Assembly: GCA_964626265.1 (NCBI GenBank)
Contig: CAZVCG010000006.1
Span: forward strand, 133-64,132
Source: an uncultured Rhodospirillaceae bacterium
GTDB lineage: Bacteria; Pseudomonadota; Alphaproteobacteria; UBA9219
Reading direction: 5' to 3'
Length of the DNA: 64,000 bases
Part shown: positions 1 to 13,969 of the stretch, in pieces
Layout: every line of letters begins with the position of its first letter
Numbering within the stretch: position 1 is the stretch's first letter
Position numbers and translations under genes: made by a program
The notes under the pieces: model-generated
Databases searched by the model: none
What the model saw: only the letters and a program-made list of their open reading frames with translations
Told to the model about the DNA's origin: nothing

Positions 1-53
1 TTATTCTTTGGGAACAGTCCGTTGAAGCCATTAAGAATGTCGAGCGCATCAGC

Positions 54-1025
54 TTGGAAAAAAGCGCATATTTTTCCAATCTTCTAAGAAATGAGTCGGA
101 TGCTGACAGTTATCTAACATCCATGAGTTACTACTTCTTCACGGGAAGAAAGGGATTGTGGATTTATAAAAACGGAGAGTCCTTTATTCCGTTTTGTTGG
201 CATCCCAACGTTCCCGATCAGGTGCTTGTATTCCCGCAACGAGGAAGAAGCTGCCCAGGCTTACTGGATGAGTTTCTTTCCAAAGTACCGATGCCTCCAG
301 CCGGAATCTCTTTGGTTCGCGTCAAAGAGAGCATTGATGCAGTCCCTTCGATCAAAGCGATAGGCTCTTTAGGTTCTGTTGTCCTATCCCCTGTCGTTGA
401 GCCTGTGCTGGACTGGAAGTATCCTGTTCGTGTGCTTTCCACAAAAACTGTTTCCGCAATGAATGGCCCTGAATTTCGCTACATTCGGAATCGCGTTAAG
501 CAGATAGAACGGGCCGATGGAAAAATCGCTGCTATGAAGGATGTTCCGGTTCTTTTTCTGGAAGAATTTATTCGTAGATGGGCTGGCTCCAACACGGAGT
601 TTTACACCGAAGAAGATGAGATGTTCTCACTCTATCAAAAGATTATTTCCTTCCGAGACAAAGCGGAGCTTGGCGTTGATGGTTTTGTCGTCTTTATAAA
701 CGGAGAAATAGAGGCCTTGACTATGTGGGATACCTCTAACGCGGGCACCCCTATTGCAAACCGTTTTGTCAATCTGTGCGATACAACGTATGGCGGCCTT
801 GCAGATTTTTGCACGGTATCTCTTGCTAGAAAGCTTGGAGCGCAAGGCATCGAATATCTGAATATCGGTGGCGCGGAGACGGAAAGCTTGGACCAGTTCA
901 AGAGAAAGTTTCAGCCTGCCTATAGCCTCAAGCTTCACTCTGTAGAAGTGAAAACAAAAACAACGAATGGCTTGTCTTTCAGACCCTATAGTTCTCTCAA
1001 TGCGGAGGCGGCATCTTATGCTTAA
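54..1025 (+). CDS. DUF2156/LPG_synthase_C-like (GNAT-fold) protein; the frame is open to the window edge, so the 5' end may lie upstream
   Basis: The 323-aa ORF ends in ...LNIGGAETESLDQFKRKFQP, which resembles the conserved C-terminal FK.KF.P signature of DUF2156 / MprF C-domain proteins. There is no stop codon upstream in frame back to position 3. Confidence 0.35.
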   Translation: MEKSAYFSNLLRNESDADSYLTSMSYYFFTGRKGLWIYKNGESFIPFCWHPNVPDQVLVFPQRGRSCPGLLDEFLSKVPMPPAGISLVRVKESIDAVPSIKAIGSLGSVVLSPVVEPVLDWKYPVRVLSTKTVSAMNGPEFRYIRNRVKQIERADGKIAAMKDVPVLFLEEFIRRWAGSNTEFYTEEDEMFSLYQKIISFRDKAELGVDGFVVFINGEIEALTMWDTSNAGTPIANRFVNLCDTTYGGLADFCTVSLARKLGAQGIEYLNIGGAETESLDQFKRKFQPAYSLKLHSVEVKTKTTNGLSFRPYSSLNAEAASYA

Positions 1026-1443
1026 GCTCAACGAAATTCATTCGATTAAAGTTGGCGACAAAGAAGTCCTTGGAAAATTGATCGGGATAGATTCCTACTT
1101 AATGGACGCTTTCGATGGCAAGCGCCATAAATGGAAAAGCTATACCTTTGTTTCCGATGCGAAAGGCGTTTTTGCGCGTTACTGGGTCACGGAGAGGAAA
1201 ACAGGTTGGTTTCTTTCAACGGCTTCAAAACGCAAAACCCCGCCCAAGAATGCTAAGGTTGTGAATGAGCGAAGCGGGATTGTTCAAATTGATTTTGAAG
1301 GAGAAAAAGGCGTTTCAACGCCATCGGCAGCTTTATTGGCGTATCAAACCGGAAAAAACCTTTTCTTCACCATCGAACGCTTCCTTGATTCAGAGATCAT
1401 GTTTTTTGACGGGCAAAAGCCCAAGGCTATGAAAATGCCGTGA
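1018..1443 (+). CDS. hypothetical protein, translationally coupled to the upstream ORF
   Basis: Its ATG at 1018 overlaps the upstream TAA (ATGCTTAA). The 141-aa product has no recognised domain. Confidence 0.45.
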   Translation: MLKLNEIHSIKVGDKEVLGKLIGIDSYLMDAFDGKRHKWKSYTFVSDAKGVFARYWVTERKTGWFLSTASKRKTPPKNAKVVNERSGIVQIDFEGEKGVSTPSAALLAYQTGKNLFFTIERFLDSEIMFFDGQKPKAMKMP

Positions 1444-1692
1444 TGTTTATGGTTGTCGGCCCTTATTGACGCAGACTATTTCGCCCCTTGTGTCCTTTGT
1501 CCATTCAATCCCCCATCAACGACAAGGGGCACCCTCATGATTAGAAAGGCTTATTTCTGGCAGATTCCCTGAAGCCAGTACGATTTTTATTGCTTTCGCC
1601 CCGATACGTTGGCATATTACCAACATTGTTGCCCGATGGGCTGTGGCGTCATTGAGGAGGAGCCTCTTCGCTGGAGAGGTCTGGTTTTGTTT

Positions 1693-1953
1693 ATGAGTTT
1701 TCAGGACGACTTGCTCCAGAAGGGCGTAACGGGACAAAAAGCCCACTATGCGGCGCAAGGATACCTCGAATTACTCCACGAACAACTGACCCTTGCCTCG
1801 GACGAGGCAGAACTTATCGTCGTTCTTTACACAGCGGGCCGGACGGATGAAATGAAGACTGCTCTTCAGGGGATGGGGCGGCGACTTGCCGATGCCGTCC
1901 AATCATACCAATCGGCTTCTTTGTTGATAGGAAAAGATGAGGATGCTGACTAG
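1693..1953 (+). CDS. hypothetical small protein
   Basis: An ORF of about 86 aa starting at an internal ATG, immediately upstream of the divergent repressor gene. Confidence 0.25.
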   Translation: MSFQDDLLQKGVTGQKAHYAAQGYLELLHEQLTLASDEAELIVVLYTAGRTDEMKTALQGMGRRLADAVQSYQSASLLIGKDEDAD

Positions 1954-1968
1954 ATCGGGTCGCTTTGA

Positions 1969-2385
1969 TTAAGCGGCCCCTTTTTGTTTTTGGGTCGTCC
2001 TCACGATGGAAAAAGCCAGCTCTTTCGTCTGCTCAACGCTTAAGTTGTGGCGGACGGTATCGTTGTAGATAAACGAAATCCACGAAGCCAGTTCCTTCGG
2101 GCCAAGAGTCACGCCCACATCTTCGCAAGCGTCATAGACGAAGCCTATCACGGAGCCTAAGAGCGCCTGGTCGCAGGTCGAAGGTAGGCCGAGGTCAATA
2201 TCGACAATTTCGTTTGGGGAGAGGTTCAGAACCTTGCTGAACTTAAGAAGCCATTCGATGGTGAGCTTTCGTTGGCCATTTATGACGCGGCTTACCTCTG
2301 TGTAATCCTCCCCCATTTCTTTTGCTAAGGGGCGGATTTTGAGGTCTCGCTTTGTAACAAGCTCTTTAAGTCGGTGCTTCATCAT
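1969..2385 (-). CDS. XRE-family helix-turn-helix transcriptional regulator (phage cI-like repressor)
   Basis: N-terminal HTH (LKIRPLAKEMGEDYTEVSRVINGQRKLT). It is divergent from the replication genes, the classic prophage repressor arrangement. Confidence 0.8.
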   Translation of the reverse strand: MMKHRLKELVTKRDLKIRPLAKEMGEDYTEVSRVINGQRKLTIEWLLKFSKVLNLSPNEIVDIDLGLPSTCDQALLGSVIGFVYDACEDVGVTLGPKELASWISFIYNDTVRHNLSVEQTKELAFSIVRTTQKQKGAA

Positions 2386-2556
2386 ACCCTGTCATTCCCG
2401 AAGATTCCTGAGAGAACATTATAGACAATTCTCGGTCTCGTTTCAACGGCCACGTTGCCATAACGCCAACGGTTTAGCAAGGCGGATGCAGACTGTTTTA
2501 CTTTCGTTCTCCATAAACAACACTAATTCCTGAAATTTTGTGAAGATTCTCTCTTG

Positions 2557-2587
2557 CCTAAGTGTTGGCATTATGCCAACACTTAGG
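2557..2587. promoter_or_regulatory. perfect 15+1+15 palindrome CCTAAGTGTTGGCAT-T-ATGCCAACACTTAGG, candidate repressor operator
   Basis: The inverted repeat is seen directly in the sequence. It lies in the divergent intergenic region between the XRE repressor and the primase gene. Confidence 0.5.
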
Positions 2588-2640
2588 GGACAGCGACAAA
2601 CAAAGCCGGACATTCTGTCTAAAATAGCCAGCCCGCTTGA

Positions 2641-3741
2641 ATGGTCGCCCTGATTTCTCTCACTTTTTCGGGTATCACCATGGACGAACGTAGAATAGTT
2701 ACGGACGCGATTGCGTCTGCTTTCAAAGGAAAAGCATCGGTCAAGCGGGTTGAAGCCAATCGCTCAATCCGACTTCAGGATATAGAACAAGCAAACGCGG
2801 CGCACGATCTTGTGGCCCTGGTGGGCGAAAAAGTCCGGCTGGCCCGAAGCGGCGATAAATGGCGCGGCTTTTGTCCCTTCCACGGCGACCAGCGTCTTTC
2901 GACGTTTACCGTCAATCCCAAAACCAACCGTTACGCCTGTTCCGTTTGTGGCGCGGAGGGGGACGCTCTTTCCTGGATCATGGAAACGCAGGGATTGAGT
3001 TTCGCCCAAGTGGTCGCTCTATCGCTCAAAAAACCTCTTATCGATCCCCGCGCCCAGCAAGAGCCCATCGGCGCGGCCCTCAATTACGCCGACCCGCCGC
3101 CCTCCGACGAAGCCATCCGGCAGCACAAGCGCGAGATGGCGGAAAAAATCTGGAGAGAAAGCCAGTCGCCAGCCCACAGCCTTGCCGAACGCTATCTCTA
3201 CACGAGGGGGCTTGTCCTTGACGGCCCTTTACCTGAAAGCATCCGCTTTCACCCGAACCTCTATCACGAACCAAGCCGGATGCAATTTCCGGCAATGGTC
3301 GCTATGGCGCAAACCACAGACGGCGCGTTCGCGGGCGTTCACCGCACCTATCTTGCGCCGAGCGGCATTGACGCGGCCCATGTCGCGCAAGGCAACGTCC
3401 GCCGCATGTTTGGCGAATGTTTCGGCGCGTTCGTCCACATCCAGGAAGGCAATCCCGAAAAGCTCGTCATGACCGAGACGATTGAATCGGCTTTGACGAT
3501 TGCGCGGGCCTGCCCCGACCTGACTGTCTATGCGTCGATGGCCTTGAACAATCTGAAGGCGCGTGTGCCGGAGACCGTCAAAGAACTGATCCTGTGTCCC
3601 GAAGGGAATAACGGAAATCCGCACATGGCCGAGCGCATTTTGGTGGAGGCCGCGCAGGATCATACCCAACGAGGCCATCGCGTGTTCGTTGCCCGTGCGC
3701 CGCAGGGATTGGAGTTTTCCGACCTGCTGCTGGTGGATTAG
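2641..3741 (+). CDS. phage DNA primase (CHC2 zinc finger plus Toprim domain)
   Basis: CHC2 motif GFCPFHGDQRLSTFTVNPKTNRYACSVCGAEGD. A C-terminal Toprim-like motif (VMTETIESALTIA) is present. The true start may be the ATG at 2680, which gives MDERRIV. Confidence 0.85.
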   Translation: MVALISLTFSGITMDERRIVTDAIASAFKGKASVKRVEANRSIRLQDIEQANAAHDLVALVGEKVRLARSGDKWRGFCPFHGDQRLSTFTVNPKTNRYACSVCGAEGDALSWIMETQGLSFAQVVALSLKKPLIDPRAQQEPIGAALNYADPPPSDEAIRQHKREMAEKIWRESQSPAHSLAERYLYTRGLVLDGPLPESIRFHPNLYHEPSRMQFPAMVAMAQTTDGAFAGVHRTYLAPSGIDAAHVAQGNVRRMFGECFGAFVHIQEGNPEKLVMTETIESALTIARACPDLTVYASMALNNLKARVPETVKELILCPEGNNGNPHMAERILVEAAQDHTQRGHRVFVARAPQGLEFSDLLLVD

Positions 3742-3756
3742 TCGAGGTGGGAGCTG

Positions 3757-4011
3757 ATGCACTATCAGCGTCTCCTCTCCTTGTGTTCCCATCTTGATGG
3801 CCATCGTACAGTTCCTTCCAAAATAGACCCCATAGCGAGCGTGCCGCTTGGGGAGGCCAGCGACCTATGCTGCCGCGACTCTTCAGGAAAGGGCCGCATC
3901 AGCGAGGCGTCTTTTCAAAAGATTCGCGCCTTCCGCCAGAAGATGGCGGAATGGGATCGCGATTACGGTGGGTTCGGCTCTGAAATCTCCGAAAGGAGCC
4001 GCCCCAAATGA
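3757..4011 (+). CDS. hypothetical protein
   Basis: Its stop overlaps the next gene's start (ATGA at 4008-4011), which suggests translational coupling. Confidence 0.3.
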   Translation: MHYQRLLSLCSHLDGHRTVPSKIDPIASVPLGEASDLCCRDSSGKGRISEASFQKIRAFRQKMAEWDRDYGGFGSEISERSRPK

Positions 4012-5066
4012 CAATCTCTTATCCGTGGAGCAAGTTCTACTGGAGCGATTGGGAGAATGATCCCGCGCTCCGCGTATGCTCACTCGCTGCCCAGGGCCTC
4101 TGGATGCGGCTCCTGTGCATTGCGGCAAGATCCACCCCGACTGGGTTCATAGTCGTGGCCGGACGACCTTGCTCCTCTACGGACCTCTCTCTTTTGACGG
4201 GGGTTGCCGAACGGGAGGTCGAAAGGCTTCTCGATGAGCTTTCCCAAAACGGTGTGTTTTCCCGCGATGTGAAGGGCCGCATTTTTTGCAGGCGCATGGT
4301 GCGCGACACGCATCTACGAGCCAGATTGCGCAAGAATGGCGCGAAAGGAGGCCAAAGCAGCTACTTGAATCAGAAAGGCATTTTTGCGCGGAACGAGCAA
4401 ACGTCCGAGCAAGGCTCCGAGCAGGAGTCCGAGCCTAAGAAACAAGAGTCAAAAATTCAGAAATTAAAAACCCCCGAAAGCCCCCCTGTGGTTTTTGACG
4501 GTCACGGCGAAGCTGCGTCCGATGCCAAACGGGGCAGGCCCAAAGCCGTTGTCAGCAAGCTTTCATCGGACTGGTCATTGCCCGATGAATGGCGAGACAC
4601 GGCGCTTGAGCGCAATTGGGCAAGCGGGGCGGTCAGCAAACAGGCCATGAAGTTCAAGCAGTATTTTGGCTTTGGCAAAGGCAGCGATATTCGGCGTAGC
4701 GAAAAAGGCTGGCGACAAACATGGCTGAATTGGCTGGATCGAGCGTTGAAGATTGATCCTAACGCGGCAACGTTCGGGCAAGCGGAAAGTCCGGCATTGC
4801 CAGCGAACTATCCGCCCTTGCCGGAACCTGTGCGCCAAAAACTGCAAGGCCATTACGCCTTTAACGAAACCTTCCTTCAACGATGGCTTGCGCCTTGTCT
4901 CATTGACCTTGAGACGGGCCGCATCACCGCGCCGTCGAGCTTTCACGCCGAGTATCTGGAAACCCGTTACGGCGCGGCGCTGGAACATGCGCTGGGCCGC
5001 TCCCTGTCTTTCGCCGTCGGCAAAACGCATCCCGCAAACATACATACAGGAGAAAGCAAGAAATGA
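4008..5066 (+). CDS. DUF1376-family phage protein (replication-module associated)
   Basis: The N-terminus YPWSKFYWSDWENDPALRVCSLAAQGLWMRLLCIAA fits the DUF1376 signature that is common in alphaproteobacterial prophages. Confidence 0.6.
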   Translation: MTISYPWSKFYWSDWENDPALRVCSLAAQGLWMRLLCIAARSTPTGFIVVAGRPCSSTDLSLLTGVAEREVERLLDELSQNGVFSRDVKGRIFCRRMVRDTHLRARLRKNGAKGGQSSYLNQKGIFARNEQTSEQGSEQESEPKKQESKIQKLKTPESPPVVFDGHGEAASDAKRGRPKAVVSKLSSDWSLPDEWRDTALERNWASGAVSKQAMKFKQYFGFGKGSDIRRSEKGWRQTWLNWLDRALKIDPNAATFGQAESPALPANYPPLPEPVRQKLQGHYAFNETFLQRWLAPCLIDLETGRITAPSSFHAEYLETRYGAALEHALGRSLSFAVGKTHPANIHTGESKK

Positions 5067-5162
5067 TGGGAAAACGGCCTTTTTCGGCAAAAAACCTTTC
5101 GTTAATCAACGAAGCGGAAAGGTTGTTTTGCCATAATAATCAGAACACTTGGAAAGTGTGCC

Positions 5163-5669
5163 GTGGGCCACGGGCGGTGGCTCATGGCTAAGAGGCGCAA
5201 GGCGAAGAAATGGATGCCCGTGCGCCTGGGGGAGCGTGCAACAATGGAGCTTCGGGCACAATGCGGCGGTGTGATAACGGAAGTCATAGATCGGGATTTG
5301 CGCGGCAACCCGTATATGATCCGCGACCGTGTGCGCATTGAGTGCGCGTTGGATTATTATTTTTGGGACGGGCGGTTGACACAAGGCGAATATGAGGCGG
5401 GGCTAAAGTTCCGCCGCGCCTATCAACGCGCCGTTCTTGGGCTTAAGGTCGAAGATCCCGCATCGAGCGGAGCCTATGATCCAGAGATGGCCATGCTGAT
5501 TGTGCCAATCAGCGAGGAGATATTGCGCGACGCTTATGGCGAATTGTCAGCAGCGCAAAAGAAAATCATCATCGACGTGTGCGGTCACAACAAATACGCA
5601 GGCACGACGGATCGCGTTGAAACGTTGCATCGCGGCCTCGAAAAACTGGCGACGTTGTGGCGGCTGTAA
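5163..5669 (+). CDS. hypothetical phage protein
   Basis: A 168-aa ORF in the phage early region with no recognised domain. Confidence 0.4.
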   Translation: MGHGRWLMAKRRKAKKWMPVRLGERATMELRAQCGGVITEVIDRDLRGNPYMIRDRVRIECALDYYFWDGRLTQGEYEAGLKFRRAYQRAVLGLKVEDPASSGAYDPEMAMLIVPISEEILRDAYGELSAAQKKIIIDVCGHNKYAGTTDRVETLHRGLEKLATLWRL

Positions 5670-5921
5670 AACTTTTTTGCATCCACCACAAAAAAACTGC
5701 TTGACGATCCCACGTAGAGGCCCTACGACTTAGGTAACGTTGCGAGACGTGGGTAAGGAGCCGCCGAAAGATTTTTCGAGCGGTTTTTTTGTTGGCTTTC
5801 TCATGCCCCCCCCGCGTTCTTTCGCCCTCCTGCAACGTCCTGATCTTCAAGGTACTTCCAGCCCGAAATGCTAAGGGGGCGGGCGTAGCGCGGGACTTCT
5901 CTAGCGACAGAATCAAAAAAG

Positions 5922-5982
5922 GGTGGACACTTTTGACGAAGGTGGACAGGTGGACACCTGTCCTTTTGTCCACGCGTGGACA
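5922..5982. promoter_or_regulatory. array of GTGGACA half-sites including a perfect 16-bp palindrome TGTCCACGCGTGGACA, operator- or parS-like
   Basis: Repeats are seen at 5922-5930, 5944-5963 (GGACAGGTGGACACCTGTCC) and 5967-5982, ending 20 bp upstream of the ParB-like gene start. Confidence 0.4.
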
Positions 5983-6001
5983 GTCGGGAGGACAGCATTT
6001 C

Positions 6002-6631: not shown

Positions 6632-8130
6632 TAAAGCTCCTTCCGATCAACGCCGTGCGGCCAAGCGCCTATAACCCCCGCAAGGCCGATCCTGTGCGCC
6701 TGAAGGTTATTGAGCTATCGCTTCGCAAGCTGGGCTGGCTTCTCCCCATTTATGCGGATGAAGATGGCGAGATCCTTTCCGGCCACCAACGCCATCTTGT
6801 CGCAACGCGCATGGGAATGAAGCAAGTGCCTGTGGCCTACGTGCCGCGCATGACGCTGGAGGAACGCAAGGCGATCAACATTGCGTTCAATCGCGGCACG
6901 AACGACATGCAAAACTCGGACGCGCCCGACACGCTGAAGCTGGCGCTTGAGGAATGTAACGTTTTCGACATTGCCGCCGCCCTGCCGGATCAAGAAAACA
7001 TTTGCCCCTGCTTAAATGCGGAAAGCGTTTCTCTCGTGCCGTTCCTTGAGGCGAATAAAGGGCGGTGGGTTCCTTACACGCGCAATCTCGCGCAAATGCT
7101 CCGCAAGCGCAGCATCCAAATGCCCGTTGTGGCCACAAGAGATTATAGGATCGTCAATGGTCTTGGCCGTGTCGAACTTGCAGCAGAGCGCGGCGAAAAA
7201 GAAGTTCCTGTTGTTTGGATCACGGAAGCGCAGGCCGCACTTGCAAGCGCCATGCTGAACTTTTTGAGCATGGATTTTGATATTCACACCCGTTACGCCG
7301 ACTTGCTCCGGTATAATTCGTTCCGGCGGGTGCGGCGCGTTCGGGAAACGCTGGGTTGGGGTTTTATCTTCGCGCATTACCGGAAAAGCATCGTCAAAGA
7401 ATATGACGTGACAACGCCGGAGAACGCCAAACAATGGAAGAGCCTCTACGGAACGTCTGTTGTGGACTTTGGCGCGGGGCATTTGACCGAGACCAAAATC
7501 CTGCGTTCCATCGGCGTGCGCGTATCAGCCTTTGAGCCTTTTCGGATCGGGGAAAAAGATGAAATCGACAAGGCCGAAAGCCTGCGCGTGGCGCGGGACT
7601 TTCTCGCGGACGTGGCCGCTGGCATAAAGTACGACTCCGTTTTCATTTCCTCGGTCTTGAACAGCGTCCCGTTCAAAGAGGATCGGGAACATATTGCCTG
7701 TTTGTGCGCCGCGCTATGCGGCCCCAAGACGCGGCTTTATGCAGCGGCTTCGGCGCGGTCTCATGCCAATTGGAAGAACCTTGCCGGATGCAACCAAATA
7801 TCAGAACGCCGCCTGAAAGAATGCCTGTTCCGGCTGGATTATGAAGACGGCGTTTCGCTGGGCGACTTTCAGTCGAAGCCGAAGGTTCAGAAATACCATT
7901 CGCAGAAAGAGTTCTACGAACTGTTCCAGCCTTTCTTCGAGCGGGTACAGGTGGAGGATCGGGCGCACAACGTGACGGCCATTTGTGCGATTCCGAAACC
8001 GATAAGTTCGGCGCAATTAAAAGCAGCTATCGCTTTTGAGTTTGATTTACCGTATCCTGATGGGAGCCGTATGGGGTTGGTCGATGAGGCCGTCGCCGCT
8101 TATGAAAAACGGCTGGGCATGAAGCTATGA
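6628..8130 (+). CDS. fusion protein with two ParB-like N-terminal domains and a C-terminal class-I SAM-dependent methyltransferase-like domain (possibly CmoB-like)
   Basis: Two ParB-like segments (LPINAVRPSAYNPRK...ILSGHQRHLVA and MPVVATRDYRIVNGLGRVELAAERG). The C-terminal region has VVDFGAGHLTETKILRSIGVRVSAFEP (motif I-like) and YDSVFISSVLNSV (post-II-like). No DPPY motif is present. The ATGA overlaps the upstream gene. Confidence 0.65.
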   Translation: MIKLLPINAVRPSAYNPRKADPVRLKVIELSLRKLGWLLPIYADEDGEILSGHQRHLVATRMGMKQVPVAYVPRMTLEERKAINIAFNRGTNDMQNSDAPDTLKLALEECNVFDIAAALPDQENICPCLNAESVSLVPFLEANKGRWVPYTRNLAQMLRKRSIQMPVVATRDYRIVNGLGRVELAAERGEKEVPVVWITEAQAALASAMLNFLSMDFDIHTRYADLLRYNSFRRVRRVRETLGWGFIFAHYRKSIVKEYDVTTPENAKQWKSLYGTSVVDFGAGHLTETKILRSIGVRVSAFEPFRIGEKDEIDKAESLRVARDFLADVAAGIKYDSVFISSVLNSVPFKEDREHIACLCAALCGPKTRLYAAASARSHANWKNLAGCNQISERRLKECLFRLDYEDGVSLGDFQSKPKVQKYHSQKEFYELFQPFFERVQVEDRAHNVTAICAIPKPISSAQLKAAIAFEFDLPYPDGSRMGLVDEAVAAYEKRLGMKL

Positions 8131-8546
8131 TTATTCTTTTAGACCTGAATTACACGCTGGTTTCCAACAGCCAAGAAAAGATCAAACCCTTTGCTCGTCA
8201 AATCGACAATGAACGTTATTCGTCCGATCTTTTGAGCCGCATCAAAGACAGAACCGTTATTTTGATAACGGCGCGGCCCAAACTTCATAAAGACCGAACC
8301 CTTCAAAGCATCCGATACAAGACGGGATGGTTGCCGCAGGACGCTTATTTCAACGAGTGGTTCTTGACGCCTCCGTCCTGCAAAAAGAAAATCCTCGAAA
8401 AATACATCTTCCCCAAATATGGCGCGAACCCTGAAAGCTATGTTGCCATCGAAAGCAACCCTTCGACCCGCGCCATGTACGAAAAGTTTGGCATCGTCGC
8501 CCTGACACGGGACACGGTGCTTGAGACCTTTCGTCCCAAAGATTGA
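8127..8546 (+). CDS. HAD-like fold protein with degenerate motif I (DxN instead of DxD)
   Basis: IILLDLNYTLV (motif I-like), TVILITARP (motif II-like) and VAIESNPSTRA (motif IV-like). It has 4-bp overlaps with both neighbours. Confidence 0.35.
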   Translation: MIILLDLNYTLVSNSQEKIKPFARQIDNERYSSDLLSRIKDRTVILITARPKLHKDRTLQSIRYKTGWLPQDAYFNEWFLTPPSCKKKILEKYIFPKYGANPESYVAIESNPSTRAMYEKFGIVALTRDTVLETFRPKD

Positions 8547-8584
8547 TCCCTAAAACATTGTTGAAAGAAAATGGAGGTTCTGCC

Positions 8585-9250
8585 ATGCGGATTCCGAGAG
8601 AGTGGACTTTTGCCAATCGGTCTGTGGCCGAAGGGTTCGACCACCATGTGCGCGAACAATTGCCTTGGTACGATCTTCTGACTTCTGCCGTTTCCTATAT
8701 CGGGCGGCATTACATCCCGCAAGGCGGCCTTGTTTATGACATCGGGGCTTCCACGGGCAACATTGGCCGCGCCTTGCAAACAACGCTGGACTCCCGCAAT
8801 GCCGAACTGATTGCGATTGAAGAAAGCACGGAGATGGCCGCGCTTTATGACGGCCCTGGCTCTTTGGCGATCACGAACGCTTTGTCTTTTCCTTATCAGC
8901 CGTTCGATCTGGCCATTTGCTTTTTGGTTCTCATGTTCTTTCCGCCGAGCGAACGAGAACGGTTTCTTGATCGGCTCAAAGAAAATCTGCGTCCAGGCGG
9001 CGCAATCCTCGTGGTCGATAAATGTGAGGCCGTGCAGGGCTATCCCGCGACCATCCTTTCCCGCATTGCGCTTTCTCACAAGATTGCGGCTGGCGTTCAT
9101 CCGCAGGAGATTATCGAAAAAGAACTAAGCTTGAGCGGCGTGCAGCGCCCGATTGATCCGGCCATTCTGGGAGACGAAGCCGTTCCGTTCTTCCGCTTTG
9201 GCGAGTTTGCCGGATGGATTCTCGACTACAACAACCTGCATCGCAGCTAA
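8585..9250 (+). CDS. CmoA-family protein (carboxy-S-adenosyl-L-methionine synthase homolog / class-I SAM methyltransferase)
   Basis: It aligns collinearly with E. coli CmoA. EWTFANRSVAEGF...PWY matches DWTFDERVAEVF...PGY. VYDIGASTG matches VYDLGCSLG. ELIAIEESTEMAA matches KIIAIDNSPAMIE. FFPPSERERFLDRLKENLRPGGAILVVDK matches [29 protein letters not shown]. A strong RBS (GGAGG) lies upstream of the ATG at 8585. The ORF track begins at a TTG at 8543. Confidence 0.75.
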   Translation: MRIPREWTFANRSVAEGFDHHVREQLPWYDLLTSAVSYIGRHYIPQGGLVYDIGASTGNIGRALQTTLDSRNAELIAIEESTEMAALYDGPGSLAITNALSFPYQPFDLAICFLVLMFFPPSERERFLDRLKENLRPGGAILVVDKCEAVQGYPATILSRIALSHKIAAGVHPQEIIEKELSLSGVQRPIDPAILGDEAVPFFRFGEFAGWILDYNNLHRS

Positions 9251-9260
9251 GACAAAATGA

Positions 9261-9800
9261 ATGATGGGCCTGTCAATCCGAGCTTATGCCGCGCACAGGG
9301 GGTGTTCAAAAAGCGCGGTCATGAAGGCCGTTCAAAGTGGCCGGATTACCAGAGACGAAGACGGCAAGATTGATCCCGCCAAGGCCGATCTTCAATGGGA
9401 ACGAAATAGTGATCCTGGACAAGTGGAAGCGCAGAAAGAGGCACAACAACCAGCCCCTCCAGCGAAGCCCAAAACCAAAACAGACGAAACCGCACCCGCT
9501 GCATCATCTGCCGAAGGGCCGACCTACATCCAAAGCCGCGCCATCCGCGAGCTGTACGTCGCACGACTTCGGAAAATGGAATACGAGGAAAAGGCCGGAC
9601 GGCTCGTCCCCTTGGAAAAAGTAACCGTCCGCTGGTTCAATCTTGCGCGGCAATTGCGCGACCAGCTTTTGGGCATTCCCAACCGGATTGACGCTATCGT
9701 TGCGGCAGAAAGCGACCGTTTCAAGGTCAATCAGCTTTTAAGCGAAGAGCTTTCCCGCGTGTTGGAAGAGTTCTCCAAATCCGACCCCGAAAATCTTTAA
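9261..9800 (+). CDS. phage terminase small subunit (HTH-type)
   Basis: N-terminal HTH (GLSIRAYAAHRGCSKSAVMKAVQSG), and it sits immediately upstream of the large terminase. Confidence 0.7.
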   Translation: MMGLSIRAYAAHRGCSKSAVMKAVQSGRITRDEDGKIDPAKADLQWERNSDPGQVEAQKEAQQPAPPAKPKTKTDETAPAASSAEGPTYIQSRAIRELYVARLRKMEYEEKAGRLVPLEKVTVRWFNLARQLRDQLLGIPNRIDAIVAAESDRFKVNQLLSEELSRVLEEFSKSDPENL

Positions 9801-9804
9801 CAAT

Positions 9805-11721
9805 ATGCGCGATCCGCAAGAAACAGCTTTTATCCTTTCCTATCTGGAAGGGCTAAAGCCAGACCCCGTTTTGCTGGTTTCGGAATGGGCAGATAACAAC
9901 CGCTTTCTCTCCGGCAAGGCGGCGGCTGAACCTGGCCCCTGGCGCACAAACCGCACGCCGTATTTGCGTGAGATCATGGATTGCCTGTCGGCAAGCTCTC
10001 CCGTCGAACGGGTTGTTTTTATGAAAGGGGCACAGGTCGGCGGAACGGAATGCGGGAATAACTGGATCGGCTATATCATTCATCATACGCCTGGGCCGAC
10101 GATGCAAGTCAACCCGACGGTTGAAAACTCGAAGCGCAATTCCAAACAGCGCATCGACCCGCTGATTGAAGAAAGCCCCGTACTGCGGGAACTGGTCAAG
10201 CCAGCGCGATCCAAGGATTCCGGCAACACGGTTCTGACCAAAGAGTTTCCTGGCGGCATTCTTGTCATGGCGGGGGCGAACAGCGCGGCGGGGCTGCGCT
10301 CCATGCCCGTGCGGTTTTTGTTTCTGGACGAAGTGGACGCCTATCCTGGAGACGTGGAAGGTGAAGGCGACCCCATTGCTTTGGCCGAAGCGCGAACGCG
10401 CACCTTTGCGCGGCGCAAGATTTACCTGGTCTCGACGCCGACGATTAAAGGCCTATCTCGTATCGAGCGAGAATATGAAATCAGCGATCAACGTCGCTTT
10501 ATGCTGCCGTGCCCACGTTGCGGCGCGTTCCAATGGCTCAAGTTCCCACAGCTTAAATGGCCGCACAATCAGCCGGAGAAAGCGGCCTATGAGTGCGAAC
10601 ATTGCGGCCAGCTTTTTGATGAGCATCACAAAACGGACATGATGGCCAATGGTTATTGGCAGGCCCATGCCGAAGGCGATGGGCGCACGGCTGGTTTCCA
10701 TGTTTCCAGTTTGTATTCGCCGCTCGGCTGGCGAAGCTGGGCGGAAATTGCCCGCGCTTGGCTTGACGCGCAAGGTTCGGACGCTTCGATCAAATCGTTC
10801 AAGAATACCGAGCTTGGCGAAACCTATGTCGAAAGCGGCGAAGCGCCGGAGTGGCATCGCCTCTACGAACGCCGCGAAGATTACCGCATTTGCACCGTTC
10901 CGATGGGCGGCTTGTTTCTCACGGCTGGCGTGGATGTGCAAAAAGACCGCCTTGAACTGGAAATCGTAGCATGGGGCCGTGACCGCGAATGCTGGTCGGT
11001 GGATTATCGGGTTCTGCAAGGCGATCCCGCCAAGCCGGAGGTCTGGCAGGCGCTTGACGCTATCTTGGGTGAGAGCTTTACGCATGAAGCTGGCGTCAAT
11101 CTCGCCATCCTCAAACTGGCCATCGACACGGGCTATGCAACGCAGGAGGTTTACGACTGGGTACGTCATCAGCAAGGCGATAGGGTTATAGCCGTCAAGG
11201 GCGTTGACCGCCTTGGTGCGCCGCTGGGTGCGCCCAGCCCGATGGATGTGACGATACGGGGCAAGCGCAAGCGTCGCGGTCTTCTCGTTTGGCCCGTTGG
11301 CTCCTCCTTCAGTAAATCCGAAATCTATGGATGCCTGCGCAAAGACGCGCCGACCGACGAACAAAAAGCGGAAGGCACAGGCTTTCCCCCTGGCTATTGC
11401 CACTTCCCGAAATACGGCGAGGAGTATTTCAAGCAGCTCACAGCCGAGCGGCTTGTGACGATCAAAGACAAACGAGGCTTTCCGCACCGCGAATGGCACA
11501 AAGAGCGAGAACGCAACGAAGCCCTCGATTGCCGCGTGTACGCCCGCGCCGCCGCCGCCAGCGTCGGTATCGACCGCTTCACCGAGGCCATCTGGCAGAG
11601 GCTCGAAAAGGCTTTGGGCGTTAGTGATGAAGTCAACAGCCCCACAGATGAAGCCCCCACCTCACAAGCCAAGTCGCCACCCGTCCTCCAACGCCGCACG
11701 ATAAGGAGCAGTTATGTATGA
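9805..11721 (+). CDS. phage terminase large subunit (lambda GpA family)
   Basis: A 638-aa product with LLVSEWADNNRF...PWRTNRTPYLREIMD...KGAQVGGTE, characteristic of GpA-type TerL. Confidence 0.9.
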   Translation: MRDPQETAFILSYLEGLKPDPVLLVSEWADNNRFLSGKAAAEPGPWRTNRTPYLREIMDCLSASSPVERVVFMKGAQVGGTECGNNWIGYIIHHTPGPTMQVNPTVENSKRNSKQRIDPLIEESPVLRELVKPARSKDSGNTVLTKEFPGGILVMAGANSAAGLRSMPVRFLFLDEVDAYPGDVEGEGDPIALAEARTRTFARRKIYLVSTPTIKGLSRIEREYEISDQRRFMLPCPRCGAFQWLKFPQLKWPHNQPEKAAYECEHCGQLFDEHHKTDMMANGYWQAHAEGDGRTAGFHVSSLYSPLGWRSWAEIARAWLDAQGSDASIKSFKNTELGETYVESGEAPEWHRLYERREDYRICTVPMGGLFLTAGVDVQKDRLELEIVAWGRDRECWSVDYRVLQGDPAKPEVWQALDAILGESFTHEAGVNLAILKLAIDTGYATQEVYDWVRHQQGDRVIAVKGVDRLGAPLGAPSPMDVTIRGKRKRRGLLVWPVGSSFSKSEIYGCLRKDAPTDEQKAEGTGFPPGYCHFPKYGEEYFKQLTAERLVTIKDKRGFPHREWHKERERNEALDCRVYARAAAASVGIDRFTEAIWQRLEKALGVSDEVNSPTDEAPTSQAKSPPVLQRRTIRSSYV

Positions 11722-11894
11722 CGCTTCCCGATTTCGAGAAATACAGAGGCTACATGGGCGAGTTTGATATGACGGATCAGGAGCGGGACGAAGTGACTTT
11801 GGCTTTATGGACGATCATCAATCACTTTATTGACCAAGCCTTCGGAGAGCATCCCGTTCAATTGTGCAAAAAGGCCACAAAAACAACCACTTGA
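11718..11894 (+). CDS. small ORF (58 aa) in the position of a gpW-like head-tail joining gene
   Basis: MTLPDFEKYRGYMGEFDMTDQERDEVTLALWTIINHFIDQAFGEHPVQLCKKATKTTT. Its start overlaps the terL stop. It is not in the ORF track because it is shorter than 60 aa. Confidence 0.3.
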   Translation: MTLPDFEKYRGYMGEFDMTDQERDEVTLALWTIINHFIDQAFGEHPVQLCKKATKTTT

Positions 11895-11949
11895 CCCGTG
11901 AATTTTGCCGCACCCTTTGCTATAATGGCGAGTTACTTCAGGAGGTGAA

Positions 11950-12291
11950 ATGACCCATAACGCATATATCTATTGCCGTTCCGCGACGCGCGATCCAACA
12001 GACCCGTTGCCGGAGTCCATAAAAAAACAAGACCGCTTTTGTCGGCTATACGCAGAAAAAGAAAACATCAACGTCATAGAAACTGTGACTGATATAGGCA
12101 TTTCGGGACTTTCCGAAAACCGTGAGGGATTTGATCGTCTTTTGGCCTTGTTGAACGACTTACCCAAGCCACGGGTCGTTATCATTTCCTCCCATGATCG
12201 TCTGGCTCGAAGCTTTGACGTCCTAATCCGCCTAAAAGAAAAAATTGAGGAAGCCGACGCCACGCTCCTTTTTGCTTATAAAGGTGATTAA
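11950..12291 (+). CDS. serine-recombinase resolvase-domain paralog, truncated (113 aa) and likely catalytically inactive
   Basis: It aligns to the N-domain of the downstream recombinase (DRLARS, VII, G.SG blocks), but the catalytic RVSS motif is replaced by RSAT. It has a strong RBS (AGGAGG) and a TATAAT box upstream. Confidence 0.65.
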   Translation: MTHNAYIYCRSATRDPTDPLPESIKKQDRFCRLYAEKENINVIETVTDIGISGLSENREGFDRLLALLNDLPKPRVVIISSHDRLARSFDVLIRLKEKIEEADATLLFAYKGD

Positions 12292-12299
12292 AACTTCGC

Positions 12300-13847
12300 A
12301 TGATCCATTCCGCCGTTGTCTATTGCCGCGTTTCCAGCCCTAAACAAGTCAAAGAGGGGCACGGGCTGGGGTCGCAAGAGACGCGGTGCAGGGAATACGC
12401 GAAGTTCAAGAATTATGATGTGATCCAAGTTTTCCAAGACGAAGGCGTTTCGGGCGGCATGATTGACCGCCCTGGCATGCAAGCCATGCTGACTTTCTTG
12501 AGAAAGCAAAAGAAAGAACCTCTCGCCGTCATCATTGACGACATAAGCCGCCTTGCGCGTGGGCTTGAAGCCCATTTGGAATTGCGGACGGCCATCGCGC
12601 AAGCTGGCGGTAAATTGGAATCCCCTTCGATTGAGTTTGGCGAGGATTCCGACAGCCGCCTTGTCGAAAACCTTCTGGCCAGCGTCTCGCAACACCAACG
12701 GCAAAAGAATGCCGAGCAAGTCGTGAACCGCATGAGGGCGCGTGCGATGAATGGCTATTGGGTCGCATGTCCGATTATCGGCTATCATTATCAGAACGTT
12801 CCAGGCCACGGCAAAATGCTTGTAAGGCAAGAACCTGTGGCCTCGATTGTTCAAGAAGCCTTGGAAGGCTTCGCGCACGGACGTTTTGAAACCAAAAGCG
12901 AGGTCAAAAGGTTTTTGGAAGAGCAAGAGGGCTATCCCAAAGATCGTAAAGGCGAGGTTCATCTTCAGCGCGTTGAAAACATTCTTCGCCGCGTCGCCTA
13001 TGCGGGCTACCTCAACACACCAGAATGGGACATTCATTTCCTTCCGGCCAAGCACGAGCCGCTTATCAATTTCGAGACGTGGCAGAAAATACAAGAACGT
13101 CTTGATGGCGCGGCGAAGGCTCCGGTGCGAAAGGATCTTCGGGAAGATTTTCCTTTGCGCGGATTTGTCCTGTGCGCCCATTGTGGGAAGCCCATGACAT
13201 CTTGTTGGTCGAGGGGCCGCAACGGAAATTATCCCTATTACTTCTGCGACACGAAGGGCTGTCCCGACTACCGGAAATCAATTCGTAAAGAAAAGCTGGA
13301 AAGCGATTTTGAGGTCTTGCTGGAAGGCCTTTGCCCTTCGGAGAAGTTTGTCGCCCTTGCCAAGGAAATGTTTCGGGAAAGCTGGGAGGCGCGAAACGCC
13401 AACAAGAAGGAAGGCCTTCTCCTCTGCAAAGCAGAGCTTCAGGCGCTTGAACGAAAAGAGGCCCAATTTCTGGATCGACTTGTCGAGGCCGACAATCCGA
13501 ACCTGATCCTTGCCTATGAAAACCGGATCAAGGAACTGGGGCTTCGGAAGATCGTTTTGAGGGAAAAAATCGAGGCCAGCGGGCGGCCTCAGCAAAGCTT
13601 CAACGAGATTTATCGAACCGCCTTCGATTTTCTCAAAAATCCGCAGAAACTCTGGGTTTCCGGCGATATTATGGCCCAAAGAACCGTCCTAAAACTCACT
13701 TTTGAGGAGAACCTGAAATACGGTAGAAATGAGGGTTTTCGAACCGCTCTAACTACTTGTCCTTTCAGGTTTTTTCGGGACTTTAGTGCCGATAACTCCT
13801 TAATGGTGCCCCAGGAGGGACTTGAACCCCCACATCCTTGCGGATAG
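12300..13847 (+). CDS. large serine recombinase (phage integrase)
   Basis: Resolvase domain (VVYCRVSSPKQ), recombinase domain, zinc ribbon (CAHCGKPM...YYFCD..C) and a coiled-coil region. The 3' end runs into the tRNA-Leu gene. Confidence 0.9.
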   Translation: MIHSAVVYCRVSSPKQVKEGHGLGSQETRCREYAKFKNYDVIQVFQDEGVSGGMIDRPGMQAMLTFLRKQKKEPLAVIIDDISRLARGLEAHLELRTAIAQAGGKLESPSIEFGEDSDSRLVENLLASVSQHQRQKNAEQVVNRMRARAMNGYWVACPIIGYHYQNVPGHGKMLVRQEPVASIVQEALEGFAHGRFETKSEVKRFLEEQEGYPKDRKGEVHLQRVENILRRVAYAGYLNTPEWDIHFLPAKHEPLINFETWQKIQERLDGAAKAPVRKDLREDFPLRGFVLCAHCGKPMTSCWSRGRNGNYPYYFCDTKGCPDYRKSIRKEKLESDFEVLLEGLCPSEKFVALAKEMFRESWEARNANKKEGLLLCKAELQALERKEAQFLDRLVEADNPNLILAYENRIKELGLRKIVLREKIEASGRPQQSFNEIYRTAFDFLKNPQKLWVSGDIMAQRTVLKLTFEENLKYGRNEGFRTALTTCPFRFFRDFSADNSLMVPQEGLEPPHPCG

Positions 13848-13890
13848 CAGATTTTGAGTCTGCCGCGTCTACCAATTCCACCACTGGGGC
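13804..13890 (-). tRNA. tRNA-Leu(CAA), 87 nt with a long variable arm and an encoded CCA end
   Basis: Folded by hand from the minus-strand sequence GCCCCAGTGGTGGAATTGGTAGACGCGGCAGACTCAAAATCTGC...CCTGGGGCACCA. The 7-bp acceptor stem, the anticodon stem GCAGA/TCTGC and the loop CTCAAAA give anticodon CAA. Confidence 0.85.
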
Positions 13891-13969
13891 GAATACCAAA
13901 AACCGAGGGATAATAACGGGATGTTCAGCTTGGTCAATCGGATAATGAACGTATTGCAAAATAAGGTCT

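Follow-up and report, generated by a model that had tools for sequence, protein, structure and literature searches.

A phage-derived integrative element of uncultured Alphaproteobacteria with a complete terminase and no particle genes

What kind of element keeps a phage repressor, replication genes and a terminase without genes for a phage particle, and how could it be transmitted? This question is raised by positions 1–13,890 of a 64,000-nt stretch of DNA (the window), which covers nearly all of a MAG contig of 64,889 nt. The region is the right-hand ~14 kb of an integrative, phage-derived element of ~19–20 kb, a total size that is estimated, attL having been located in none of the copies. 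The element is one copy of a mobile element that recurs in uncultured Alphaproteobacteria, and its combination of terminase, replication genes and repressor without particle genes is undescribed among known phage satellites. Judging from its sequence, it is most likely transmitted in capsids and tails borrowed from a related complete phage.

Gene content and the tRNA-Leu junction

The gene order and coordinates of the original prediction were borne out by ORF calls together with Pfam and PHROG matches (Table 1), and all the long ORFs of the element are intact. No portal, capsid, tail or lysis genes were found in positions 1–13,890, and the ORFs of 15 complete related phages matched nothing between 14 and 64 kb or to the left of position 5990, in agreement with the predicted lack of virion structural genes.

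Table 1. Features of the element in positions 1–13,890 of the window.
Feature	Position	Strand	Evidence or remark
Variable cargo slot	1–1443	+	Window begins inside slot
LPG_synthase_C-like protein	54–1025	+	Pfam LPG_synthase_C, E = 1.2e-9
158-aa ORF in cargo slot	967–1443	+	
114-aa ORF, left edge of conserved core	1609–1953	+	Homologues in L005, L001
XRE-type repressor	1969–2385	-	Pfam HTH_3, E = 3e-8, residues 6–60 of 138
DnaG-type primase	2641–3741	+	Pfam CHC2 zinc finger, DUF7146, Toprim
84-aa ORF and 352-aa putative replication initiator/replisome organizer	3757–5066	+	Weak PHROG matches
168-aa ORF	5163–5669	+	phrog_31762; 90% identical in L005
Non-coding control region and candidate packaging signal	5695–6004	+	
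ParB_N protein, 208 aa	about 6005–6631	+	Pfam/PHROG
ParB_N protein, 500 aa	6628–8130	+	phrog_5475
139-aa ORF	between 500-aa ParB_N protein and SAM methyltransferase	+	
SAM methyltransferase	8543–9250	+	Pfam/PHROG
TerS, small terminase subunit	9261–9800	+	phrog_57, E = 1e-32
TerL, lambda gpA type	9805–11721	+	GpA_ATPase and GpA_nuclease
p58, 58-aa helical protein, gpW position	11718–11894	+	
Small resolvase-catalytic-domain paralogue	11950–12291	+	Pfam Resolvase, E = 5.5e-17
Large serine recombinase (LSR, integrase)	12300–13847	+	Pfam Resolvase, Recombinase, Zn_ribbon_recom
attR	13780–13830	.	Alignment of window, L170, empty sites L177, L178
tRNA-Leu(CAA), intact, host target	13804–13890	-	ARAGORN; Rfam tRNA, 53.9 bits

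The cassette of HTH, LPG-like and 158-aa genes in the cargo slot is also present left of the core in the related copies L001 and L170, the latter lacking the 158-aa ORF; it recurs in the unrelated islands L002 and L003, and in L002 a tyrosine integrase and a tRNA-Gln adjoin it. In L005/L182 the slot holds HTH and Methyltransf_33 genes instead, with conserved element DNA on either side. The cargo slot gave no PADLOC or PHROG matches. Nucleotide homology with L005/L006 begins at position 1554, and the 114-aa ORF has homologues of 66–88% identity in L005 and 54% in L001. The XRE repressor, which is 89% identical in L005 and just 27% in L004, is an HTH only and lacks the LexA-like S24 peptidase domain. 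The primase is conserved in L001, L005, L010 and L170, whereas the complete phages L007 and L180 have an AAA_25 protein in its place. The 352-aa protein, predicted to be a DUF1376 protein, did not match that domain even at E ≤ 1, and showed weak PHROG matches to replisome organizer (4e-7) and O-like proteins (3e-5). Just ahead of the late-operon control region lies the 168-aa ORF, which from this location may encode a late regulator.

The control region has a promoter-like site (TTGACG), a hairpin that includes a T-run at about 5760–5790, a GC block GGGGGCGGGCGTAGCGCGGG at 5877–5896 and five exact GTGGACA heptamers at 5923–5982, so that five of the nine GTGGACA copies of the whole window are packed within 60 nt. 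The sequence GGGCGGGCG sits 3.84–3.93 kb upstream of TerL in every family copy and in the complete phages L007, L180 and L011, and is followed by 4–5 GTGGACA repeats in the family versus 2–3 in the complete phages. By its position and by what we take to be a resemblance to lambda cosN, the GC block is a candidate cos-like site, but may alternatively act as a late promoter or operator. The four genes that follow (6005–9250) also precede TerS in L007 and L180. The N-terminal 40 residues of TerS, its DNA-binding end, are nearly invariant between family members and these two phages, and TerL is full length (GpA_ATPase positions 1–247 of 247 and GpA_nuclease 1–290 of 294, with 341 and 326 bits). 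The DNA-binding end of TerS and the cos-like block hardly differ from their counterparts in the complete phages, and no packaging discrimination is evident. Furthermore, no capsid-size or interference gene was recognisable in the element.

The 58-aa ORF was correctly placed at the gpW position, but its kinship to gpW was rejected (hhalign probability 0.4%). The p58 protein is family-specific, with just 11 clusters among 5.8 billion proteins, and stays linked to the recombinase in decayed copies without TerL; its AF2 model is a helical hairpin (pLDDT 78) that gave no fold match. Of the two predicted serine recombinase genes, the large one stood. The first encodes a truncated catalytic domain without helix E and any DNA-binding domain, and in the alignment its nucleophilic serine is changed to alanine (YCR[ST]A in 4/4 copies versus YCRVSS in large recombinases); this paralogue is thus predicted to be catalytically dead. 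The LSR is 87% identical to that of L170, 75% to those of L172–L175 and 62% to those of L004/L005, and no relative of it was found in IMG/VR. Its ORF enters the tRNA-Leu by 44 nt on the opposite strand, the last 14 codons being tRNA antisense.

The tRNA-Leu(CAA), the sole tRNA in the window, is identical in sequence to that of L177, which together with L178 provides the unoccupied site (attB). Identity with the unoccupied site stops 3 nt past the CCA end of the tRNA, at about 13,801–13,803. The alignment places the recombinase crossover within 3 nt of the CCA end, an event that would leave the tRNA intact and no tRNA repeat to mark attL; the direct repeat of the tRNA-Leu 3′ segment that had been proposed for locating attL was searched for, and no such repeat exists. 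The left boundary lies outside the window, as predicted, since tRNA-Ser(CGA), which comes after tRNA-Leu in the empty sites of relatives, is missing from the window and related copies reach ~5 kb further left, in an arm that carries regulators, NUDIX and a variable cargo slot but lacks structural genes.

Recurrence, selection and phage ancestry

The junction TerL–p58–small resolvase–LSR–tRNA recurs in L004 (NCBI MAG), L005/L006 (JGI, Logan) and L170 (Logan), and in L010 (IMG/VR) as far as the small resolvase, where the contig ends. The window and L170 are at tRNA-Leu(CAA), L004 and L005 at tRNA-Ala(GGC) with unrelated right flanks, and the decayed copies L172–L175, reduced to p60, the recombinase and a C-terminal piece of TerL, at tRNA-Lys(TTT). 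In 137 of the 166 loci that encode a TerL relative, a portal gene lies downstream, and the recombinase ending is limited to a clade with at least 85% TerL identity. As the same ending recurs in independent assemblies at tRNA-Leu and tRNA-Ala, the capsid-less state is no isolated deletion. About 8 TerL and 11 p58 clusters make up this small family, and metagenomes are its sole source.

The architecture is conserved, occurs at several tRNA targets and is under purifying selection. The dN/dS was 0.03–0.11 for TerL within the truncated clade (dS 0.25–1.06), 0.03–0.10 for the 500-aa ParB (ParB500), 0.03–0.14 for the ParB-to-methyltransferase block, 0.04–0.16 for the LSR, 0.08–0.25 for p58 and 0.17–0.39 for the small resolvase. 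The TerL of L170 is 98% identical to that of L005, yet its LSR is 87% identical to that of the window, with which it shares the tRNA-Leu junction, a mark of exchange of packaging and integration modules among the copies.

L007 and L180, the nearest outgroups by TerL (77% and 76% identity), are complete phages: both have genes for portal, protease, HDPD, capsid E, tail tube and tape measure. The block common to both kinds of element, running from the cos-like site through ParB, ParB/500 aa, 139 aa, methyltransferase and TerS to TerL, identifies lambda/WO-like temperate siphophages of Alphaproteobacteria as ancestors. Lambda-like and Wolbachia WO-like siphophages have the same module of ParB, methyltransferase, TerS and gpA-type TerL with a homologous GC block upstream, the TerL of WO phages being 56–58% identical to that of the element. 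A large serine recombinase is used by the complete relatives too, and in L180 it lies at the opposite (left) end. They continue directly after TerL with gpW and portal, then protease, decoration protein, capsid E, tail tube and tape measure, whereas in the element p58, the dead paralogue and the LSR, followed by the tRNA, replace gpW, portal, protease, decoration protein, capsid and tail.

Readings of the element

The original prediction offered a satellite or packaging hijacker and a prophage with its morphogenesis module lost or replaced. The former is supported as the present state, and the latter as the evolutionary origin only. The element is probably a helper-dependent phage satellite supplying its own complete terminase, a reading that draws on the conservation of the truncated architecture at no fewer than two tRNA genes, on purifying selection, on module exchange and on the remaining TerL relatives being complete phages.

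Alternatively, the element could be a domesticated defective prophage without particle transfer, moved occasionally by its recombinase and kept for a host benefit from the terminase/cos, the ParB/methyltransferase genes or the cargo, a benefit that could lie in sabotaged packaging of related phages that infect the host. Purifying selection proves a function and not which one; the terminase and cos-like site, near-identical in specificity determinants to their counterparts in complete phages, would be suited to competing for phage concatemers or cleaving them; defence-carrying islands typically have a variable cargo slot; and interference or capsid-size genes were not found in the element. We nevertheless consider domestication unlikely. 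The full lysogeny switch, the element's own primase and initiator, and the integrase have all been kept, which suggests a life cycle with excision and self-replication and not a locus fixed in the host. In addition, copies with 78–87% nucleotide identity lie at different tRNA genes and have unrelated flanks, the cargo has no PADLOC match, and defence and satellite transfer are compatible with each other.

A complete or bipartite prophage, with morphogenesis and lysis genes further left or at another chromosomal locus outside the window, is improbable, although the left end lies outside the window, no copy has yielded attL and the source MAG contig covers only part of a genome. The gpW/portal position after TerL is taken by the integration module and tRNA. 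Portal, capsid or tail genes just upstream, which would have argued against the satellite reading, were absent from the two related copies with 10 kb upstream readable: in L001 this stretch, to the left of the equivalent of the window start, has regulators, NUDIX and small ORFs followed by PurA (464 bits) and further genes of host type, and in L181/L182, covering 10 kb left of L005, nothing matched the ORFs of the 15 complete phages or a Pfam or PHROG structural family. Neutral decay of a non-functional deletion remnant, of which L172–L175 would be examples, is already disfavoured and very improbable given the intact long ORFs, dN/dS of 0.03–0.16 for TerL, ParB500 and LSR at dS up to about 1, identical boundaries at different tRNA targets and modules recombined between copies.

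Proposed life cycle and comparison with known satellites

For a helper-dependent satellite, the following cycle can be envisaged from the gene content. In the lysogen, the XRE repressor, having no autocleavage domain, would silence the element until a related complete phage of the L007/L180 type, resident or infecting, triggered derepression. The serine recombinase would then excise the element, p58 and/or the dead resolvase possibly setting its directionality, and replication with the element's own primase and initiator would be followed by expression of the ParB-to-TerL operon. TerS and TerL of the element would cut its concatemers at the shared cos-like site and package them into helper procapsids, and particles would be released with helper tails and lysis functions.

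The satellites known to encode TerL, namely cfPICI and Streptomyces satellites, all have capsid genes as well (PMC10085698, PMC10690885). The cfPICIs are likewise integrative satellites of ~10–20 kb with integrase, regulator and primase and, unusually among satellites, TerS and TerL (PMC10085698; 10.1101/2022.09.08.507074), but they are defined by their own major capsid protein, protease, portal and head–tail adaptor/connector and steal tails only. The element has none of these structural genes, and differs in its large serine recombinase at a tRNA 3′ end and its lambda gpA-type terminase. The PICIs and SaPIs, including cos-type and Gram-negative ones, share the layout of repressor, primase/replication, packaging and cargo, lack structural and lysis genes, have a repressor without SOS-cleavage domain and use helper capsids, as proposed here (PMC10085698, PMC5052747). 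In contrast, PICIs carry TerS at most, or Rpp/Ppi, need the helper's TerL, and mostly have tyrosine integrases and capsid-remodelling genes, whereas the element, about twice the median PICI size, has a complete terminase and the ParB/methyltransferase block. PLEs and VEIMEs are also satellites that integrate via large serine recombinases; TerL is not reported in them, VEIMEs having TerS at most (PMC9618062), and they show no sequence relation to the element.

The element is about half as long as its complete relatives (40–48 kb contigs), and may thus be packaged as a dimer. Pseudomonas AH14b and P4-type satellites would be the model: packaging of a capsid-less satellite as a multimer in full-size helper capsids has a precedent there, although AH14b lacks terminase genes and has a tyrosine integrase (PMC4936722).

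Gene content and absence of virion genes

The gene order originally predicted for the element, running from an XRE repressor through primase, a ParB/methyltransferase module, TerS and TerL to serine recombinase genes and a tRNA, was reproduced by six-frame ORFs, ARAGORN, Pfam and PHROGs apart from the DUF1376 label of the 352-aa ORF, which had no match to Pfam PF07120 at E ≤ 1 (Table). The genes for the ParB_N protein, the 500-aa ParB_N protein (ParB500), the 139-aa ORF and the SAM methyltransferase form a closely packed operon, and a PDB sequence search with ParB500 returned no relative. The TerL covers positions 1-247 of 247 in PF05876 and 1-290 of 294 in PF20454, representing the full ATPase and nuclease, and contains KGAQVGGT and LFLDEVD, which we take to be Walker-type motifs. 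The Rfam scan gave nothing besides the tRNA. The window represents nearly all of a 64,889-nt NCBI contig, and the host genes to the right of the element encode a DUF4175 protein and LysA. The DUF4175 protein spans only 143-493 of the 825-position Pfam profile, and because its homologues in this lineage have equal length (~385-394 aa), this shortness was not caused by the insertion. Two stretches stand out by low GC content (0.43-0.47 vs about 0.55-0.58 in the host DNA around them) and are possible further islands.

Table. Positions of features in the window and in related loci
Locus	Feature	Position (nt)	Strand	Remarks
Window	Cargo cassette	1-1443		
Window	XRE repressor	1969-2385	-	HTH only, without S24 peptidase domain
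Window	DnaG-type primase	2641-3741		next ORF is 84 aa
Window	352-aa protein	after 84-aa ORF		weak matches to replisome organizer and O-like proteins
Window	168-aa ORF	between 352-aa gene and ParB_N operon		
Window	Non-coding stretch	5670-6004		335 nt, upstream of ParB
Window	ParB_N protein	about 6005-6631		
Window	ParB500	6628-8130		500 aa, ParB_N
Window	139-aa ORF	between ParB500 and methyltransferase genes		
Window	SAM methyltransferase	8543-9250		
Window	TerS	9261-9800		phrog_57, 1e-32
Window	TerL, lambda gpA-type	9805-11721		complete length; 341 and 326 bits
Window	p58	overlaps TerL stop codon		58 aa
Window	Small resolvase	11950-12291		113 aa, resolvase domain
Window	LSR	ends 13847		515 aa
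Window	LSR reading across attR	13804-13847		antisense to tRNA
Window	tRNA-Leu(CAA)	13804-13890	-	sole tRNA within 64 kb
Window	DUF4175 gene	13970-15154	-	host
Window	Low GC	37001-39000; 55001-56000		
L004; L005	328-aa ORF	2975-3961; 2992-3978		without Pfam match
L004; L005; L170	Small resolvase	12104-12508; 12122-12508; 12157-12507		
L004/L005	LSR reading across attR	14009-14073		antisense to tRNA
L172/L173	LSR reading across attR	11745-11770		antisense to tRNA
L170	Mosaic	10001-14035		junction between TerL and p58
L172	Decayed copy	6571-6663; 9702-11820		tRNA-Lys
L173	Decayed copy	8429-11820		tRNA-Lys
L001; L170; L002; L003	Cargo cassette	9231-11408; 328-2014; 9231-11403; 9228-11391		
L001; L182	Shared left block	6568-8729; 6393-8555		
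L177	DUF2460 gene	4251-4574		

Among the ORFs of the element, no Pfam or PHROG match to a portal, major capsid protein or maturation protease was found. When the ORFs of 15 complete related phages were compared with the window by tblastn, the matches were confined to 5990-11720 and to the primase, where a single weak match lies near 3172-3738. Tail and lysis genes were not found by the Pfam, PHROG and complete-phage searches, and the small ORFs could include holins. Thus, the window carries no recognisable virion structural genes, as predicted, and the element does not have the portal, capsid, protease, tail and lysis genes of a complete temperate tailed prophage. It is integrative, has its own regulation and replication, and is devoid of virion genes, as are phage satellites in general. 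This satellite-type architecture is conserved in the related copies L004, L005, L170 and L001/L010, and the TerS and cos-like determinants are common to the family and to the complete phages L007 and L180, an indirect hint that a helper phage may induce the element and package it in its particles.

The element was compared with the known satellite classes. In the SatelliteFinder scheme, terL separates cfPICI from PICI, and cfPICI also need capsid, protease, portal and connectors (PMC10085698). The element has the TerS and TerL of a cfPICI, but not the capsid, protease, portal and head-tail adaptor/connector genes, and it has the integrase, regulator, primase and TerS of a PICI but a full TerL as well (PMC10085698). 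Markers of P4-like elements (psu, delta, sid, alpA) and the PLE core genes had no Pfam or PHROG match among its ORFs of at least 58 aa. As assigned by Pfam and PHROG scans of the ORFs, the element therefore falls outside PICI, cfPICI, P4 and PLE, although it appears satellite-like in its working. In Streptomyces satellites the terminase is accompanied by capsid genes (PMC10690885), as it is in cfPICI, whereas here it stands without them; VEIMEs carry at most TerS, and some share with the element a serine recombinase (PMC9618062). Our literature search found no description of a capsid-less satellite with both TerS and TerL.

A family of copies and its phage relatives

The same architecture was found in several independent assemblies with TerL 85-86% identical to that of the window, namely an NCBI alphaproteobacterial MAG (L004), JGI and Logan assemblies (L005 and L006) and a further Logan assembly (L170). 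Two others, from a GTDB MAG (L001) and an IMG/VR contig with TerL 90% identical (L010), are incomplete, L001 stopping at TerS and L010 at the small resolvase. The order in complete copies is repressor, primase, initiator, ParB, ParB500, 139 aa, methyltransferase, TerS, TerL, p58, small resolvase, large serine recombinase (LSR) and tRNA. The tRNA-Ala copies L004 and L005 have an extra ORF of 328 aa between the primase and the 84-aa ORF, which is absent from the window. In L004 the primase is shorter and the repressor differs from that of the window (27% identity).

At least 166 TerL loci, collected from IMG/VR and metagenome scans together with loci already in hand, were classified by what follows TerL. 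Among the matches listed, a portal gene lies downstream in 137 of 166, 18 have no room downstream and 7 have neither portal nor recombinase; recombinases follow only in the four loci with TerL identity of at least 85% (L004, L005, L006 and L010). L170, which stands outside the 166, ends in recombinases too. The metagenome scan with TerL gave no close relatives among the matches listed. The nearest outgroups among the loci listed are two complete phages, L007 (TerL 77%) and L180 (TerL 76%), which share with the family the block ParB - ParB500 - 138 aa - methyltransferase - TerS - TerL, and continue after TerL into gpW, portal, protease, head decoration protein, capsid E, tail tube and tape measure; L180 has an LSR at its left end. 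The best TerL matches in an annotated phage collection were Ralstonia prophage records (60%) and Wolbachia phage WO (56-58%). The shared block and these TerL matches together indicate that the family descends from lambda/WO-like temperate phages through the loss of everything after TerL.

The copy L170 is a mosaic, with TerL 98% identical to the tRNA-Ala copy L005, and LSR 87% and p58 78% identical to the tRNA-Leu copy in the window, and so the packaging and integration modules have recombined between copies. In L010, where TerL is 90% identical to the window, p58 is 55% and the small resolvase 53% identical. Homologues of p58 led to four decayed copies at tRNA-Lys (L172-L175), which keep 100-235 C-terminal residues of TerL, a p60 and an LSR that is 75% identical. 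The left deletion end points of L172 and L173 differ. In L173 a ParB500 fragment abuts the C-terminal TerL fragment, and in L172 an isolated N-terminal fragment of gpW, apparently debris of a complete phage, lies 3 kb off.

Integration site, integration module and left arm

The LSR contains the Resolvase catalytic domain and the Recombinase and zinc-ribbon domains (Pfam) with the nucleophile motif YCRVSS, of the form YxRVS(S/T). The window's recombinase had no match when it was scanned against IMG/VR. The targets are tRNA-Leu(CAA) in the window and L170, with the same junction (alignment A1), tRNA-Ala(GGC) in L004 and L005, whose right-flank genes are unrelated, and tRNA-Lys(TTT) in L172-L175. 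The ORF of LSR extends 44 nt into tRNA-Leu on the opposite strand, and its stop codon lies inside the tRNA at tRNA-Ala and tRNA-Lys also. In the integrated state, the final 14 codons come from host DNA. Since the ORF crosses attR in all three target types, the C-terminal tail of LSR must differ between the integrated and excised states.

Unoccupied sites were found by searching with the host DUF4175 protein. The relative L177 has the order LysA - DUF4175 - tRNA-Leu(CAA) - 210 nt - tRNA-Ser(CGA), and this tRNA pair is also present in L178. L177 and the window agree throughout tRNA-Leu and for 3 nt beyond its CCA end (…GGGGCACCATTA), where the identity ends (alignment A5), which places the crossover at the very 3' terminus of the tRNA. 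A crossover within 3 nt of CCA, with no long target duplication and a short attB/attP core, is what is expected of a serine recombinase. The direct repeat of the tRNA 3' segment that had been anticipated at attL was not seen; neither it nor any other att-like repeat rose above shuffles at the left ends of the window, L004, L005, L172 and L173. An attB-like string at 1528-1552 of the window (GGGGCACC...ATTAGAAAGGCTTATT) was rejected, being in the wrong orientation and not significant. In L177, a gene for DUF2460, a family linked to gene-transfer agents and phages, lies ~1 kb from the unoccupied site.

The 58-aa ORF, earlier placed at the gpW position, is not gpW: tblastn gave no match and hhalign a probability of 0.4% against gpW of the related phages, which is 68 aa long (MSYTEAQRDAL…) and unrelated to p58. 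Only 11 clusters of p58 occur among 5.8 billion proteins. AF2 models it as a helical hairpin (pLDDT 78), for which fold searches of BFVD and PDB gave no significant match, and the PDB sequence search gave none either. Because p58 accompanies LSR in the decayed copies, it is tied to the integration module. The serine recombinase genes of the original prediction comprise one with an intact motif, the LSR, and one without. The small resolvase lies directly upstream of LSR, with overlapping coding regions in the relatives, and aligns to the LSR catalytic domain but ends before helix E, and its nucleophile position is Ala in 4/4 copies (YCR[ST]A vs YCRVSS of LSRs). It is missing from the tRNA-Lys remnants. 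It looks like a "dead" paralogue conserved by purifying selection, perhaps acting as a regulator or directionality factor.

The left boundary lies beyond the window, as predicted. The tRNA-Ser(CGA) is absent from it, so the inserted DNA passes its left edge, and related copies continue leftward. Two IMG/VR contigs, L181 and L182, match L005 with full identity and reach 10 kb further left, and L001 is their equivalent for the window type. A left block of L001 and L182 is 77% identical in nucleotides, similar to the core. Its ORFs are one for an XRE-type HTH protein of 244-246 aa and four smaller ones, of 170 aa, 70 aa and, twice, ~125 aa. Beyond the block to the left come genes for a NUDIX hydrolase and additional HTH proteins, and in L001 then PurA and further genes of host type. 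A variable slot separates this arm from the core. It holds HTH, LPG_synthase_C-like and 158-aa genes in the window and L001, the first two of these in L170, HTH and Methyltransf_33 in L005/L182, and Methyltransf_33 in L004. A left end at ~1554, where homology to L005 starts (element ~1554-13803, 12.3-13.3 kb), was rejected because of the conserved arm past the slot in L181/L182 and L001, and Methyltransf_33 was rejected as host flank of L004/L005, as the two proteins are 23% identical and sit in the slot. From this layout the window begins inside the slot, and by analogy ~5 kb of the element would lie to its left, giving a whole of ~19-20 kb. Nothing informative came from PADLOC and PHROG for the ORFs of the cargo and left arm, and the left arm of L181/L182 had no match to the ORFs of the 15 complete phages. 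Structural genes just upstream, which would have spoken against a capsid-less element, were thus not found in the left arms of L001 and L181/L182. The three-gene cassette (XRE-HTH ~215 aa, LPG_synthase_C-like, 146-158 aa) moves between different islands; it is also found in the unrelated islands L002 and L003, in L002 next to a tyrosine integrase and tRNA-Gln.

Candidate packaging signals and a proposed mode of transfer

The non-coding stretch upstream of ParB has family-wide features, namely a TTGACG promoter-like site, a hairpin with a T-run, the block GGGGGCGGGCGTAGCGCGGG and an array of the heptamer GTGGACA, five exact copies of which occur in the window within a 60-nt stretch vs four in the remaining 64 kb. 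The family has 4-5 copies and L007 and L180 have 2-3. The sequence GGGCGGGCG is located 3.84-3.93 kb upstream of TerL in all family members and in the complete phages L007, L180 and L011. The lambda cohesive end is GGGCGGCGACCT, and based on resemblance to it we propose the GC block as a putative cosN, accompanied by a TerS- or ParB-binding array. The N-terminal ~40 residues of TerS hardly vary between the family and L007/L180, and a common recognition site is therefore probable. In the window, 5695-6004 contains the promoter-like site and an intrinsic terminator, resembling a lambda pR'/tR'-type antitermination set-up, and then the GC block and the dense GTGGACA array overlapping the ParB start. 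The 168-aa ORF next to this stretch could be a regulator.

The helper-dependent satellite, one of the readings offered originally, gains its support from comparative genomics, and on that basis we consider it fairly probable that the element is a satellite bringing its own terminase. The mechanism could be as follows. A helper phage of the L007/L180 type would derepress the element, LSR would excise it, directionality perhaps being set by p58 and/or the dead resolvase, and its own primase and initiator would replicate it. On expression of the ParB-to-TerL operon, packaging would start at the shared cos-like site, the element's own terminase filling procapsids made by the helper, which would also provide the tails and lysis functions that finish the particle. 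Its complete relatives (contigs of 40-48 kb) are about twice as long as the element, which makes dimer packaging plausible by analogy; AH14b is packaged as trimers (PMC4936722). The fuller account, to which we give even chances, would be a previously undescribed alphaproteobacterial satellite family that retains, of the ancestral morphogenesis operon, only the packaging half (cos-like site, ParB/methyltransferase block, TerS and TerL), packages itself, probably as a dimer, into helper capsids, and is moved by an LSR module at the CCA ends of tRNAs (Leu, Ala, Lys), with a dead resolvase paralogue and p58 that may control directionality.

Known satellites form two groups, those that borrow the helper terminase, redirected by TerS, Rpp or the cos site, and those with terminase and own capsid (cfPICI and Streptomyces satellites). 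If the proposal is true, a whole terminase without capsid fills the gap between the two strategies, the packaging motor alone can be a retained "selfish" module, and satellites extend to uncultured Alphaproteobacteria. With this family, competition of a foreign terminase for the helper's portal can be studied in a concrete system. The LSRs, which act at the very 3' terminus of three different tRNA genes and have a dead paralogue as partner, might serve studies of specificity and directionality and could be potential genome-engineering tools.

Other explanations were weighed against a satellite with its own terminase. That the element was domesticated and is no longer transferred, being kept for defence or cargo, is unlikely; the LPG cassette may represent a defence or accessory module of uncharacterised type, and PADLOC found no match in it. 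Less likely again is that it forms part of a bipartite prophage; the left-arm ORFs contain no structural family in Pfam, PHROGs or the 15 complete phages. A neutral remnant is very improbable, as dN/dS (Nei-Gojobori, within the truncated clade) is 0.03-0.11 for TerL at dS of 0.25-1.06, and selection has thus kept the terminase long after the structural genes were lost. The corresponding dN/dS values are 0.03-0.10 for ParB500, 0.10-0.14 for the 139-aa ORF, 0.04-0.16 for LSR, 0.08-0.25 for p58 and 0.17-0.39 for the small resolvase.
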